Positions 13,984 to 21,888 of a stretch of 64,000 nucleotides of DNA are shown here, one piece after another; position 1 is the stretch's first letter; each line of letters starts with the position of its first letter. The stretch comes from Anaeromyxobacteraceae bacterium (GTDB taxonomy: Bacteria; Myxococcota; Myxococcia; Myxococcales; Anaeromyxobacteraceae). A program made the translations under genes and the position numbers. Below the pieces are notes generated by a model. That model made no database searches and was not told where the DNA came from. It worked only from the letters and a program-made list of their open reading frames with translations. Location: positions 3,008,001 to 3,072,000 of the forward strand of contig JASGHJ010000002.1 of assembly GCA_047602405.1 (NCBI GenBank), written 5' to 3'.

Positions 13984-14085
13984 CGAACACCGTACGGAGC
14001 CGGTCGCCCGCGCGCCTTGCCGGCGGGTGCGAGCCGTCCCCACCCTGTGATCCGGGGCCCGCGCACGCGGGCGGGGGGAGGACGG

Positions 14086-15186
14086 ATGGGGGCGTGGCTC
14101 CACGCGCTCGGGCTCGCGGCCGCGCTGGCGGCACCGCCCGACGCGCCGTTCTGGCGCGAGGCCGTTCCGCAGCCGGCGGCGATGGCGCCGCCCGCGGCGA
14201 CCGCCGGCGGCCTCCCCGAGCTCTCCCGCATCGCCCGGGAGGCGCTGCCCTCCGTGGTCGGCGTCACGACCACCCAGGGCCGCCCGCCCGGCGCCACCGA
14301 CGCGCAGCTCCGCGAGCTCCTCGACCGGCTCCACGACGGGCCGCGCAAGGGGGTCGGCTCGGGCTTCGTCATCCACCCGGACGGCTGGGTCCTCACGAAC
14401 GCGCACGTGGTCGAGGGCGCGGACCGGGTGGAGGTCGACGTCTCCGGCCGCACGCTCGAGGCGCGCGTGGTGGGCCTCGACTCCGAGTCGGACATCGCGC
14501 TCCTCAAGGTCGACCCCGACCGCCCGCTGCCCGCGCTCGTGCTCGCCGACTCCGACCGGCTCGCCATCGCCGACTGGGTGATGGTCATCGGCAGCCCCTT
14601 CGGGCTCGTCCGCTCCGTGACCTTCGGGATCGTGAGCCAGCTCGGGCGCAGCGACGTCTCGCCGGTGGGACGCCCGGGCTCCTACGAGTTCGTGCAGACC
14701 GACGCGTCGATCAACCCGGGCAACTCGGGCGGCCCGGTCCTCAACCTGCGCGGGGAGGTCGTCGCGATCGCGACGGCGGTGAACGCGACCGGCCAGGGCA
14801 TCGGCTTCGCGGTGCCGATCAACATGGCGAAGGCGGTCCTCGGGCAGCTGCGCGCGTCCGGGAAGGTGGTGCGCAGCTGGCTCGGCCTCGCCGTGAAGGC
14901 GCCGGAGCCCGAGGGCGAGGGGCTCGTGGTGACCGAGGTCGACGCCGCGGGCCCCGCCGCGGGCGCGGGGCTCAAGGTCGGCGACGTGATCACCGGCTTC
15001 CAGGGGCGCCCGGTCGCGACGCCGGCGCGGCTGCGCTGGTTCGTGTCGACCGCGGGCGTGGGGCGGGCGATCGAGCTGCGGGTGCGCCGGCCCGGGCAGC
15101 CGGACCGCACCGTGCGGGTCGGGCTCGTCGCGACGCCGTCGGGCGAGGAGGTCCGCGCGCAGGCACGCCAGGCCGCCGGGCCGTGA
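14086..15186 (+). CDS. HtrA/DegP-like serine protease with PDZ domain
   Basis: GSGFVI, LTNAHVV, DIALLK and TDASINPGNSGGP motifs. Confidence 0.92.
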   Translation: MGAWLHALGLAAALAAPPDAPFWREAVPQPAAMAPPAATAGGLPELSRIAREALPSVVGVTTTQGRPPGATDAQLRELLDRLHDGPRKGVGSGFVIHPDGWVLTNAHVVEGADRVEVDVSGRTLEARVVGLDSESDIALLKVDPDRPLPALVLADSDRLAIADWVMVIGSPFGLVRSVTFGIVSQLGRSDVSPVGRPGSYEFVQTDASINPGNSGGPVLNLRGEVVAIATAVNATGQGIGFAVPINMAKAVLGQLRASGKVVRSWLGLAVKAPEPEGEGLVVTEVDAAGPAAGAGLKVGDVITGFQGRPVATPARLRWFVSTAGVGRAIELRVRRPGQPDRTVRVGLVATPSGEEVRAQARQAAGP

Positions 15187-15223
15187 GCCGGGGCCGCGCG
15201 CGAGCGCGGGGTGGCGCGGTCCT

Positions 15224-15259
15224 CCGGGGGCGGCCGGCACGCGGCCGCTAGAGCACCGG
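15224..15259 (-). promoter_or_regulatory. Candidate bacterial SECIS element
   Basis: Minus strand: TGA CCGGTGCTCTA GCGGCCG CGTGC CGGCCGC CC CCGG. Upper stem begins 11 nt after UGA; loop has G then U at positions 2-3. Confidence 0.5.
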
Positions 15260-15743
15260 TCAATTCTCGACGACCGTGCTCCGGAGGAATCGGGTACCCA
15301 CTCGCGAGGCAGTCCGCCTCCGAGCGGAGCGTGTTCGGGGCGTAGTCGCGCGGGACCACCACGTAGTTGAAGAGCCAGAGCGGGCTGTACTTCTCCATGC
15401 CCGGCACCGAGTCGTAGATGTTGTACTGGCCCGGGACGCGCTCCGGCTCGCGCACCGGCTTCCCGTCCGGGCCGAGCTCCACCGCGTACACCACCTGGTA
15501 CTCCATCGCGACCTTGAGCCGCGCGGGATCGACGTCGAGCTCGCCCTGCTCGATCGCGTAGACGATCTTCCCCTCGAACCAGACCCGCTCGACCTCGAGC
15601 CGGTACGGGTTCGAGTAGGTCAGGGTCGAGGTGCCGTCCGCGCGGTAGGCCCCGGCCCGGGGCGCGGGGCCGGGCGTGCCGCCGTCGATCGACCAGACGC
15701 CCTCCTCCTCGCCCGGGGTGACGCCGCCATCGTGCTCGCTCAT
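15248..15743 (-). CDS. YSPLW-motif protein of unknown function (DUF7482-like); +1 frameshift at ~15288; candidate selenoprotein (TGA at 15262-15260)
   Basis: GQYNIYDSVPG..YSPLW..VPRDYAPNTLRSE. Removing one base at GAATC gives SGYPILRSTVVEN-TGA-PVL-TAG (495 nt, 165 codons). Confidence 0.65.
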
Positions 15744-15799
15744 GGCGGGCAATCTGGCCACCGGCCCGGGCCTTCACCACCCGCGGCGCGCCGGCCCGC

Positions 15800-17077
15800 T
15801 CAGGGGACGAAGTAGAACGACCGGCGGCGGACGAGCGCGGTCGTGACGAAGGCCTCCCCGTCGACGCCGTCGATGCGGGCCTCCACGAACGCGCTCGCCG
15901 CGCCGATGCCGGCCCAGGTCGTGTCGAGGTCGAGGAAGCGGACCTCCGCCGACTCGGTGATGGTGGCGTAGCCCGCGGGCGGCGCCTCGAAGCCGGCGAA
16001 CCAGGTGGTCGTCCCGGGCGACGCGCTCCACTCGAGCCGGAGCGGCCCCGCGGCGCTCACCGTCTCGAACTCGGCGGGCTTCTCGACGGAGAACTCGGCC
16101 GGCATCGTGAAGACCCGCCCGCGGGAGGTGTTCGCGGCGGTGACCGAGACGAGCACCTGCCCGCCGGGGCGGACGAGCGCGGTGTCGGCCTCCGACAGGC
16201 GGAAGGCGCCCCAGCCGGCGTCCCAGGGGATGCGCCGCCCGTTCACGCTCACGACGGCGTCGGGGTACGAGGAGACCGCGAGGCTCGTGACCCGCAGCTC
16301 CACCTGGAGCCGCGTGCCGTCGAGCGCGACGGTCCCGTCGTAGCCGAAGCCGGGGGGGCCGTCGGAGGGGAGCTCGCCGGAGAGGCCGCAGACCGGATCG
16401 AGGAGGAACGTGAGCCAGCCCGCGAGGCAGACGAAGGCGTCGTAGACCGGGCCGCCCTCGGTGAGCGAGAGCCGCACGCGCGTGTCGAGCGGGACGACCG
16501 CGGCGTCGTCGGCGCCCGCCGCCTTCACGAGGTTGAGCCCGGGCGAGAGGCCGGTCCCGGCCGGCTGCGCGCGGTCCACGTAGACGAGCGCGAAGGTCGA
16601 GGCCGGGTCGCCGAGCAGCGAGGACCCGATGATCCGGTCCACCGGCTTCCCGTACCGCGGGATGGGCGCGAGGCGCCGGTCGCCGTCGAGGTCCTGGTAG
16701 GCGAGCAGCACGCCGAACGCGCCGCGCCCGAGGAGCCCCTCGCCGAGCGGCGCGAGGGCGGCCGCGGGCGGCGGGCCGTAGAGCGGGAAGCGGAAGTCGA
16801 CCGGGAAGGTGCCCTCGGCCTCGACCTCCTCGGTGACGATCGCCGGGGGCGCGTCCGCCGCGGACGGATCCGCCGCGGCGAGCCACTGCGGGTACCAGGC
16901 GACCGCGAGGCGCACGGGCCCCTTCACGTCCACGCCGGGCGCCGGGACCATGCTGCCCGAGAGCGCGCCGAGCGGGACGCCGCGGTAGCTCGCGTCGACC
17001 AGCCGGTCGCCGCAGGCCGGGAGGAGGACGGCGAGCGCGAGGGCCAGGGTGAGGGGGTGGGACGCGCGGTTCTTCAT
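15800..17077 (-). CDS. Lipoprotein of unknown function
   Basis: Lipobox LPAC; AYQDLDGD EF-hand-like motif; last gene of the ECF operon. Confidence 0.75.
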   Translation of the reverse strand: MKNRASHPLTLALALAVLLPACGDRLVDASYRGVPLGALSGSMVPAPGVDVKGPVRLAVAWYPQWLAAADPSAADAPPAIVTEEVEAEGTFPVDFRFPLYGPPPAAALAPLGEGLLGRGAFGVLLAYQDLDGDRRLAPIPRYGKPVDRIIGSSLLGDPASTFALVYVDRAQPAGTGLSPGLNLVKAAGADDAAVVPLDTRVRLSLTEGGPVYDAFVCLAGWLTFLLDPVCGLSGELPSDGPPGFGYDGTVALDGTRLQVELRVTSLAVSSYPDAVVSVNGRRIPWDAGWGAFRLSEADTALVRPGGQVLVSVTAANTSRGRVFTMPAEFSVEKPAEFETVSAAGPLRLEWSASPGTTTWFAGFEAPPAGYATITESAEVRFLDLDTTWAGIGAASAFVEARIDGVDGEAFVTTALVRRRSFYFVP

Positions 17078-18667
17078 CTAGAGCCTCCACCCCAGCCCCG
17101 CGCGGACGCCGCGCGTCGCGGCGGCGCCGGCGTCGCGCTCGGTCGGCAGCGCCGTCCACATGAGCTCCCCCATGAACCACCCGAAGAGCGCTCCGGGCAG
17201 CGGGACCTCGAGGCCGGCGGTGAGCCCGGCGGAGAGTCCGAGCGCCCGCCGCAGCGGGAGCGGCCCCACGCCGAAGGTGTCCCGGATTTCCCGCTCCCGG
17301 GCCCGCACCGGCCGCTGCTCGACGCCGGCGACCTCGACCGCGAGCCCGAGGTGCGGCACGACCGGCCACTCGAGCCACCGGTACCCGGCCGCGAGGCCCA
17401 GGCCGAGCCGGCGCTCGTCGACCGTGAGCTCCACGCCCGGGTAGCTCGCCGCGCCGGCGCCGATCGTCGCGAGCGCCCACCACGGCCCCGCCGTGTGCCG
17501 GTAGCCGGCCGCGCCGGCCCACCGGGAGCCCGTGCCTGCGAGCGGCGAGGTCTGCACCGCCCCGAGCACGACGACCGCCGCGTTCCGCACCGAGAGGTAC
17601 CCGCCCTTCACGGCGACCTCCTGGTAGCGGCGCCAGGCGAGCTCCTGGTCGCGGACCTCGCGCTCGCCGCCGAAGGGCAGCTCGAGCTCGAGGAGCCCGG
17701 TGCTCGCGCCCGCGCGCTTGCGCACGAGGTACCGACCGGGCGGGACCGCGAGGCGGAGCGGCTTCCCGGCCGGCTTCTCGACCTCGGCGACGACGTCGGG
17801 CCTGGGCTGGCTCGCGACGACGTAGCGGCCCGAGAGCGCGGCCGGGAAGACGAGGGCGCTGTGCGCCTGGACGGGCTCGGTGAGGACGAGCTCGCCGCTC
17901 CCGGCGAGGTCGAACGCGAACGCCGGGTGCTGCCCGGCGCCGGCCGCGCCCGCGACCGTGCGCCGGTAGGCGTAGGCGTAGACCTCCGAGAGCGAGACCC
18001 GGCCGTCGCCCTCGACGTCGGCGTCGCCGCGCAGGCCGGTCAGGAGGTGGTGGGTGAAGAGCGAGCCCTTGAGCGAGTCCCACTCCTCGCTCGACTCGCC
18101 CGGCCCCGACGACGAGATGAAGACCTCGCCGCGGACCGGCAGCTGCTCGAGCGAGACCGCGAACTCCGGCCCCGGCCGCGCGCCCTTCCGCCGCGCGAGC
18201 GCGCCGGACTCGCACGCGTCCACGACGAGCACGGTGACGCGGGCCCCGGCGTCGCGCGCCGCCTCGCGGAGGTCGGCGAGGGCGAGCCGGCTGCCGCCCA
18301 GCCGGAGCACGCCGTCCTTCGCGTGCGACGAGACGTAGACGAACAGCACGGCGTCGTCGCCCGCCGCGCGGAGCTCCGAGATGCGGCCGGCGAGCTCGCT
18401 CAGGCGCTTTCGCACCTCCCCCGCCTCCCGGTCGAGCACCACGAGCGCCCGGTCCGGCCGGACGCCGCCGAGCTCGACCAGCACCTGCCGGACCCGCTGC
18501 GCGTCGTCGTCGGCGTAGGAGAGGACCGGGTCGTCGGGCTCGCCCACGTTCGCGCCGACCGCGAGCAGGAGCCGGTGCGTCGCCGCGCGGGCCGGGGCCG
18601 CCGCCCCCACGCCGGCGGCGACGAGGAGCGCGGCGAGGAGCGCGCGCGACGGGGAGGAGGAGCTCAC
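17078..18667 (-). CDS. Secreted caspase-like (peptidase C14) protein with C-terminal beta-barrel-like region
   Basis: Signal peptide; LSYADDDA, VYVSSHA (His), VVDACESG (Cys), SLFTHHLLTGLRGDAD..DGRVSLSEVYAY; ends GLGWRL. Confidence 0.85.
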   Translation of the reverse strand: MSSSSPSRALLAALLVAAGVGAAAPARAATHRLLLAVGANVGEPDDPVLSYADDDAQRVRQVLVELGGVRPDRALVVLDREAGEVRKRLSELAGRISELRAAGDDAVLFVYVSSHAKDGVLRLGGSRLALADLREAARDAGARVTVLVVDACESGALARRKGARPGPEFAVSLEQLPVRGEVFISSSGPGESSEEWDSLKGSLFTHHLLTGLRGDADVEGDGRVSLSEVYAYAYRRTVAGAAGAGQHPAFAFDLAGSGELVLTEPVQAHSALVFPAALSGRYVVASQPRPDVVAEVEKPAGKPLRLAVPPGRYLVRKRAGASTGLLELELPFGGEREVRDQELAWRRYQEVAVKGGYLSVRNAAVVVLGAVQTSPLAGTGSRWAGAAGYRHTAGPWWALATIGAGAASYPGVELTVDERRLGLGLAAGYRWLEWPVVPHLGLAVEVAGVEQRPVRAREREIRDTFGVGPLPLRRALGLSAGLTAGLEVPLPGALFGWFMGELMWTALPTERDAGAAATRGVRAGLGWRL

Positions 18668-20102: not shown

Positions 20103-21867
20103 ATGACCCACCACACCACCCACCGGCTGCTCCCGCTGCTCTCGCTGGGCCTCGCGCTCGCCGCCTGCGGCGGCCGTGACCCGGCCCCCACCCCCCTCCC
20201 GGTCGAGCCCGTCGAGCGCGTCGTCGACGTGCAGATCGACCCCTCCGAGGTCACCCTCGAGGTGGGCGAGACCGTCACGCTCGCGGCGCTCGTCACCACG
20301 GAGAGCGTCGAGCCTGCCCTCGGCGCCCGCGCGCTCGCGGCGGCGAACGATCCCGAGGTGACCTGGGCCTCCTTCTCCTCCCACGTCGCCGCCGTCGCCG
20401 CCGACGGGACCGTCACCGCGGTCGCGCCGGGCTCGTCGCTCGTGACCGCGACCGCGGGTGGCATCACGGCGCAGGCCACCGTGACCGTGCGCGACCCGGT
20501 GGTCGCTCCGCCGCCCATCGCCAGCGTCGAGGTCTTCCCGGCGACCTTCTGGCTCGAGGTGGGCCAGACGCGCGCGCTCCAGGCGGTCGCCTTCGACGCC
20601 AGCGGGGGCGTGGTCTCCGGCGCCGAGCTCACCTGGTCGTCCCTCGACCCCTACGTCGCGATCGTGGGCGAGGACGGCGTCGTCACCGCGCTCTCCGCCG
20701 GCCAGGCGACCCTGGAGGTCTCCGCGGGCGACGTGACCGCGACCGCGGAGGTGACCGTCACGAACGTCACGGACCCGGGCCCCGGCACGGTCGCCCGCGT
20801 GGAGCTCTCCGAGACCGTGCTCGCGCTCGCCGAGGGCGACGTGCGGGTCCTCACCGCGACCCCGGTCGACGCCGTGGGCGCGCCCGTGACCGGCCTCGCC
20901 GTCCGCTGGCAGACCTCCGACGAGGGCACCGTGTACGTCACCCCCGGCGGCGAGGTGCGCGCCGTCCGCGCCGGCGCGGCCGCCGTGACCGCGACCGTGC
21001 ACGGCAAGGTCGCGACCGCGAACGTCACCGTGACGCTGGAGCTCGACTCGGACCTCTTCTTCGAGGCGTTCTCGGCGGCGGCGGGCAAGTACGAGTGGCG
21101 GTCCCGCGACGTGCGCGACGCCGCGGCGTCCGACGTCGTCGTCATGGCCGGCGGCGCCGTCGAGGGGCGGCCCGTACCCTCCCCGGCCGGCGACCGGATC
21201 GCGTTCACCATGAACTCCGGCCTCAACCCGGCGCACCAGCTCCGCGTGGTCGACCTCCGCCGCCAGACGATTCTGGGTCCTCGACCTCCCTGGCGACGTC
21301 CTCGACGCCGCGTGGTCCTGGGACGGCGCGCACCTCGCGTTCGCGCTCCGGACGCCGGGGACCGGGCTCGACGTCTGGACCGTCCGCGCGGACGGCTCGG
21401 ACGCCCGGAACCTGACCGCCTCGCTCGGCGCGGCCTCGAACGAGACCCAGCCGACCTGGGCGCCCGCGGCGATGGGCAAGCTCGCCTTCACCCGCACGCT
21501 CGACGGCGCCTCCAGCCTCTGGACCGTCGACGCCGACGGCGCGAACCCCACCCGGCTCACGAACGGCCTCGCCGACGCCGATCCGGCCTGGTCGCCCGAC
21601 GGCAGCTCGATCGCCTTCCAGCGCTCCTCGATCGCGATCTTCGGCGACCTGTTCTTCGTGTCGCCCACCGGCGCCATCCAGCGCAGCCTGGTCGGCCGCA
21701 TCGGCATCCAGGGCCGCCCGGCGTGGTCGCCCGACGGCGCGATGGTCGCGTTCGTCGACGACCACGACCTCGCGACGGTCCGCAAGGACGGTTCGCTCGT
21801 CGCGAGGCGCACCTTCGACGCCGAGGCCACCGCGGAGACGCGGCCGGGGTGGCTGAAGAAGCGGTAG
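20103..21867 (+). CDS. Lipoprotein with three Big_2 Ig-like repeats and a TolB-like beta-propeller; +1 frameshift at ~21271
   Basis: Lipobox LAAC; WxSxD...V..DGxVTA repeats; PAWSPDG repeats. Removing one T at GATTC 21269-21273 joins the two ORFs (588 codons). Confidence 0.8.
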
Positions 21868-21888
21868 GCAGCCATTCCTGGGAGTGAA

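Follow-up and report, generated by a model that had tools for sequence, protein, structure and literature searches.

A gene on the minus strand of the window, by which we mean the whole 64,000-nucleotide stretch of DNA that was analysed, very likely encodes a selenoprotein whose family is missing from the lists checked and which uses the known recoding system. We take the in-frame UGA as a selenocysteine (Sec) codon because the TGA, the three codons that follow it and an adjacent hairpin are conserved across several phyla, because homologs of the DUF7482 type carry Cys at this position, and because the host genome (G000) has selA to selD. The ribosome would read the UGA at 15262–15260 as Sec, with SelB directing the insertion from the hairpin immediately 3' of the codon, and the product would be a 164-residue protein ending N-U-P-V-L. 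A broader reading, which we hold with good but lesser confidence, places the gene in an unlisted selenoprotein family with a fold not found in the PDB, spread across Chloroflexota, Actinomycetota and Acidobacteriota in addition to the phylum of G000. Its members would occur free in the cytoplasm, as exported proteins or targeted to encapsulins, and those of the third kind would be the first Sec cargo of a bacterial nanocompartment.

The gene end, its homologs and the hairpin

The main coding frame (15743–15291, minus strand) runs for 151 codons from its ATG at 15743 and stays open through ...DCLASGYP; it has a GC3 of 0.98 and is 97% identical to the closest homolog, P0001. The frame encodes a hairpin region (EEEGVW) at the N-terminus and one DUF7482-like domain (GQYNIYDSVPG..YSPLW), and neither a signal peptide nor an encapsulin tag was seen in the protein. 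Comparison with homologs places the conserved last β-strand, LRSTVVEN, in a shifted frame at 15286–15263, displaced by an extra base within 15290–15287 (a T or C homopolymer longer by one). It is followed by the TGA at 15262–15260, the predicted Sec codon (residue 161 of the error-free protein), which aligns with the Cys of N-C-P-V in homologs, and by the Pro-Val-Leu codons CCG GTG CTC with the true stop TAG at 15250–15248 (together 15259–15248). A predicted bacterial SECIS with a 7-bp upper stem and a CGUGC loop occupies 15248–15230, mostly in the 3' UTR. The gene end is the one that the earlier note had described, N-(UGA)-P-V-L-stop once a single base is removed at GAATC (15287–15291), and the perfect 7-bp stem that it reported 11 nt after the UGA, closed by the loop CGTGC, is present as well. 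Left uncorrected, the frame becomes a 359-codon ORF that runs antisense into a convergent htrA-like gene. The upstream gene (15800–17077, minus strand; 425 aa) is a probable lipoprotein judging by its N-terminus; it matches no Pfam or NCBIfam model and has close relatives on sludge metagenome contigs. An Rfam scan over 14000–17500 gave no matches, and a tblastn search of plasmids returned none.

The protein search yielded 1021 matches, and in all of the best 120 of these the annotated C-terminus is Asn. Homolog DNA comprised 34 loci in GTDB genomes (Chloroflexota, Actinomycetota, one Acidobacteriota and one labelled Proteobacteria) and 38 metagenome loci. The pattern TGA-P-[VI]-[LIVF]-stop is found in 33/34 GTDB loci, and the 34th (L046) has the same tail behind a frameshift of its own just upstream; 36 of the 38 metagenome loci extend to the stop, all with TGA, and the other two, L053 and L086, are cut off by the edge of their contig. 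For the codon counts, 69 loci gave 57 distinct 48-mers, the window included. One locus, L043 (in the unpublished genome G064), is nearly identical to L042, and the conclusions are independent of it. The first stop codon is TGA in 57/57, and the bases between it and the second stop vary like coding sequence: the next codon is Pro throughout (CCG 35, CCC 18, CCA 3, CCT 1), the second is GTG in 31 loci, GTC in 17, GTT in 8 and ATC in one, and the third is drawn from ten different codons for Leu, Ile, Val or Phe. The second stop drifts among the same loci (TGA 34, TAG 15, TAA 8). An additional set of 14 further or repeated loci has TGA without exception. The supposition of the earlier note that the UGA occupies a conserved Cys column is borne out, as neither TAA nor TAG ever follows ...EN and distant homologs read N-C-P-V/I. 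A reading of UGA as Trp was rejected, since 34/57 loci use TGA again for the true stop, four codons later.

The hairpin pairs GCGGCCG with CGGCCGC, and its loop starts 18 nt after the TGA. The bSECIS model specifies a loop of 3–9 nt, an upper stem of 4–16 bp, a G in the first two loop positions, a UGA-to-loop distance of 16–37 nt and an MFE ≤ −7.5 kcal/mol (PMC13188914, Fig. 2 legend), and G is allowed at the second loop base (PMC13188914, section 5). The window's hairpin falls within these constraints, with a 5-nt loop, 7 bp, G at position 2, a distance of 18 nt and −22.5 kcal/mol. Two details of its earlier description change: the G that was said to start the apical loop is the second loop base (C-G-U-G-C), which still lies within the model's first two positions, and the CCGG/CCGG lower stem gives way to a predicted GGU/ACC plus CUCU/GGAG. 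The stability of the hairpin, taken alone, is at chance level in DNA of 74% GC (z −1.6; 13/200 shuffles as stable), and the property that exceeds chance is its conservation among homologs. A strict filter (stem of at least 5 bp, loop of 3–5 nt with GU in the first positions, loop 16–24 nt past the codon) is passed by 55/57 distinct family loci, L082 being too short for this count. Applied to the gene ends of G000, the filter passes 21/642 TGA, 9/652 TAG and 2/92 TAA ends. Four of the 21 TGA ends resemble known selenoproteins by motif and provide a positive control (three formate dehydrogenase-like U-H sites and one rhodanese-like); the hairpin after the in-frame TGA of the rhodanese-like gene has the same CGUGC loop and a 7-bp stem. 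In an alignment of 32 loci, both sides of the stem change in 6/7 pairs. The covariation score was reached by 0/500 shuffles, a test inflated by related sequences, and slid partners, the better control, scored 0.04–0.09 versus 0.21.

The Sec machinery that the earlier note had proposed to confirm in the genome is complete: G000 has selA, selB, selC (tRNA-Sec) and selD, the last with an in-frame TGA of its own. Apparent selenoprotein genes elsewhere in G000 lie at C1:1183060 (−), C2:776837 (+), C2:3601568 (+), C2:525753 (−) and C2:257287 (+); they are one rhodanese-like gene (CKNER-U-HAC), three formate dehydrogenase alpha-like genes and selD. Across the host genomes, selA is found in 31/33 and selB in 30/33; two host MAGs, G040 and G067, yielded neither and are possibly incomplete. 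In a phylum sample, selA occurs in 14/14 TGA-confirmed hosts versus 308/401 genomes (77%), with p 0.023 if kinship is ignored, and all 18 genomes with a family match, including these 14, have it. Co-occurrence with selA is a weak control because the host lineages are mostly Sec users anyway, and in the class of G043 the background is uninformative at 190/201 genomes (six unpublished ones included).

Predicted fold and Cys-containing homologs

AlphaFold2 predicts a β-rich domain with one short helix. The model built without the tail has a pLDDT of 86.0, and that with the tail, Cys standing in for Sec, has 93.6 with an ordered tail whose last residues reach 95; the two runs used different alignments, and the figures are no controlled comparison. 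The U-P-V-L tail is predicted to form the ordered end of the last β-strand. Foldseek against the PDB gave no match at E ≤ 0.001 for either model, the best Z in VIA-align wide was 2.6 (obtained for the model without the tail only), a profile search of PDB sequences gave 0 matches, and the ESM Atlas gave no usable match for P0001. This lack of a PDB match by fold or profile does not prove a new fold. The helix contains a cysteine (DCL, residue 145, codon at 15311–15309), a candidate resolving cysteine that lies 16 residues before Sec; it is present in 120/120 of the closest homologs and missing in several Sec-type members such as L042, L047 and L118. In the proposed redox cycle, the selenol of Sec161 would act as the nucleophile on peroxides or disulfides in the cytoplasm and would form a selenenyl-sulfide with Cys145. 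We give this cycle about an even chance.

Homologs with Cys at the Sec position were sought by a profile search of 1.84 billion representatives, which gave 331 matches. The best 150 of the 331 contain 111 domains with the motif. Of these, 60 terminate in N-C-P-[VILAF], 28 have Asn as the last residue of the protein, and 23 are of other kinds, including His, Arg, Leu or Ser at the Sec position and frameshifted fragments. P0216 is a single-domain Cys homolog that ends NCPVL at the same place and is 37% identical over 126 residues. Most Cys forms, as judged from 35 proteins scanned, consist of DUF7482 (PF24298) repeats that belong to larger and often exported proteins, in fusion with cupredoxin, a PQQ or Kelch propeller, PKD or a type IX secretion tail. 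Three further proteins (P0150, P0154 and P0214) have an N-terminal peptidoglycan-binding domain, shown to be PF01471 for P0150, and also end at Asn.

The link to DUF7482 that the earlier note mentioned holds for the Cys homologs, many of which exceed the Pfam gathering cut-off (27.5 bits), and does not extend to formal membership of the window protein. The latter has no Pfam match, and 26/38 close homologs match DUF7482 weakly, below the cut-off (best E 0.0084). Judged by sequence, the Sec-type family is related to DUF7482 through the Cys homologs and is no formal member. What is common to both is the unit GQxN[IV]xDxxPGxxxYSxxW ... N-C-P-[VI]; what sets them apart is that DUF7482 proteins are mostly tandem repeats with Cys in exported multidomain proteins, whereas the Sec-type family has just one unit, in which TGA takes the place of the Cys codon. 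The comparison points to a functional residue of the DUF7482 unit.

Within the phylum of the window, a full Sec-type gene was found in G000 alone among 301 genomes, the other seven matches being Cys-type or degenerate repeats. Gene neighbours mostly vary (102/178 neighbour ORFs were scanned against Pfam), and beyond encapsulin and sufB they reveal no conserved operon. The SufB of one locus, L029, has a long, apparently intein-like insertion.

Alternative readings of the codon, the frame and the residue

That the TGA is an ordinary stop, with a protein ending at Asn and a hairpin acting as a terminator or stability element, is in our view highly improbable. Every database protein is annotated in this way, TGA is common as a stop in GC-rich genomes, and the gene converges on the htrA-like gene in the window; yet a plain stop would drift as the second one does, and the three codons beyond it, which vary synonymously, match the P-V-x of the Cys homologs. 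The earlier note had itself raised the objection that the hairpin might be only the terminator shared with htrA. Against this, the GU loop is kept at a fixed distance, with compensatory stem changes, at loci whose downstream genes are unrelated; there is no U-tract, and a promoter and terminator scan at the locus found none. With the UGA read as Sec, the window's own copy could still be a real pseudogene within a selenoprotein family, in which case the extra base would exist in the organism and the product would run antisense into the htrA gene. The surplus base lies in ATTC (15290–15287), LRSTVVEN continues from 15286 in another frame, and P0001 runs in frame as YPILRSTVVEN without a shift. 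A search of 36 other genomes of the genus did not recover the gene, which is therefore dispensable, and with about one frameshift in every 11 kb of the coding sequence tested (13 in ~142 kb), an error would hit only ~4–5% of genes of this size; both points favour a pseudogene. However, when 182 ORFs from a 400-kb portion of a complete congener were compared with G000, 116 had orthologs there, and 13 of these orthologs, rpoB, rpoC, lpxA, lolE and hemH among them, contain a frameshift. The assembly must carry indel errors because a living cell cannot lack rpoB and rpoC, and the same kind of shift affects the essential genes lpxA and lolE. The rest of the gene, the TGA and the hairpin are moreover intact, with the GC3 at its high value. 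We consider a true pseudogene unlikely; the extra base is probably an assembly error, the likeliest reading of a site over which neither reads nor contigs were found (21 sequencing runs contained at most 7% of the stretch's words, and four were aligned, none covering 15286–15291). An Ig-like/TolB-like gene in the window (20103–21887, plus strand) appears frameshifted too, and other frameshift findings in G000 are to be read with the frequent single-base indels of this assembly in mind.

The chemistry of the residue leaves more room for a second reading, the main rival of the redox cycle. The same selenoprotein might use Sec as a ligand for a soft metal (copper, mercury or iron) and serve as a metal carrier or sink, not as a redox catalyst, a possibility to which we assign appreciable weight although we think it somewhat doubtful. 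Pointing this way are the cupredoxin fusions of the Cys homologs P0162, P0165 and P0269, the use of encapsulins in iron storage too, and the position of the gene directly after sufB in four Actinomycetota loci (L018, L021, L029 and L031). His or Met replaces Cys in P0259, P0263 and the second repeat of P0223, and these replacements, together with the missing Cys145 in several Sec-type members, fit metal binding as well as redox chemistry. A redox role agrees better with other features: no second Cys or His cluster is conserved family-wide, the invariant additional Cys of the 120 closest homologs suits a redox pair, and the majority of characterised selenoproteins are redox enzymes according to section 7 of a recent review (PMC13188914).

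Known selenoproteins, members with an encapsulin tag and probable exported members

The claim of the earlier note that this is a Sec-containing member of a family not known as a selenoprotein family gains support from the constant TGA, the conserved hairpin and the sources that could be compared. Table 1 of a 2026 review gives 119 prokaryotic selenoprotein families (PMC13188914), and within that table there is neither DUF7482 nor a matching motif. Those listed families that are defined by an NCBIfam, TIGRFAM or Pfam model gave no match. NCBIfam 20.0 has no model for the family; one unrelated match at E 0.1 appeared in 1/38 homologs, and none for P0271 or P0272. Nothing matching the family is found in the passages compared from deep-Sep (PMC12013277) and BSepDB (PMC13326102), the literature searched contained no paper on DUF7482, and titles and abstract starts revealed none on encapsulins with selenoprotein or selenocysteine cargo. 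Deng et al. 2026, which reportedly presents unvalidated new candidates from groundwater MAGs, its supplements or the BSepDB website could already contain the family, and the families said to have been described by Haft and Tolstoy in 2025, known here only through the review's Table 1 and NCBIfam, could also bear on novelty.

SaoC (NF040734) and KCU-star (NF033934) are listed bacterial selenoproteins (PMC13188914, Table 1). The present family differs from them in having no match to any NCBIfam model, the motif N-U-P-V-x-COOH and a predicted fold without a PDB match. In common are UGA recoding by SelB, an adjacent SECIS and a near-terminal Sec, which in SaoC and KCU-star we take, from their names, to be close to the C-terminus, and which leads annotation pipelines to truncate such proteins. 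About 1000 database proteins (the 1021 matches) appear to be annotated four residues short, minus the likely active-site residue. With this family, the bacterial selenoproteome would gain a scaffold that is not of the thioredoxin type and is structurally uncharacterised.

Encapsulins serve in iron storage and oxidative stress resistance, and the targeting peptide of Myxococcus xanthus EncC is PEKRLTVGSLRR, the core of which is TVGSL (PMC10402063). TVGSL occurs near the N-terminus in 7 of the best 120 of the 1021 homologs and in ten fetched loci (L024, L036–L038, L074, L082, L083, L119, L123 and L125), the form in tagged relatives being an N-terminal [LFW]TVGSL. An encapsulin gene is present in 7/7 genomes with TVGSL versus 0/34 untagged Sec-type genomes. 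In the first 34 genomes examined, matches to PF04454 coincide with TVGSL members: they occur in the four genomes that have such members, two of which are near-identical sisters, and neither in G055, which has the variant TVGQL, nor in the 29 untagged genomes, G000 included. Among 12 further genomes, encapsulin is present in three tagged ones and in none of five untagged Sec-type ones; it is absent from G561, where the gene is split over two contigs, and present in G415 and in two genomes with Cys-type repeats only. Many metagenome loci are short, and the absence of encapsulin there carries little weight. The encapsulin gene is adjacent in L036, L037/L038, L074, L082, L083, L119 and L123, and the shell protein of L036 passes NCBIfam encap_f1 (NF041155). 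Predicting the L036 encapsulin in complex with the 35 N-terminal residues that bear the tag gave a score of 0.20, with the mark at 0.34, which counts neither for nor against an interaction.

A subset of the family is probably encapsulin cargo, judging by tag and gene content, and the tagged relatives would do the same chemistry inside a Family 1 encapsulin shell, others probably being exported. These putative cargoes resemble known Family 1 cargo such as M. xanthus EncC in the [LFW]TVGSL tag and in the adjacent or same-genome Family 1 encapsulin gene; they differ in carrying the tag at the N-terminus and in a domain that has neither a peroxidase nor a ferritin-like fold and that would include Sec. 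Through such members, selenium biochemistry would be connected with encapsulin compartments. The window's copy lacks the tag, and G000 gave no encapsulin match.

Exported Sec forms likely exist as well: L118 (in G548) has TGA-P-V-I-stop, the hairpin and an apparent Tat or lipoprotein signal. A distant branch (P0166, P0183, P0184, P0187, P0191, P0193, P0217 and P0228) has apparent twin-arginine or lipoprotein signals and also ends at Asn. In G415, a decayed remnant of the family (L130/L148) adjoins a broken encapsulin gene that has two internal TGA stops, and the pair seems to decay jointly.
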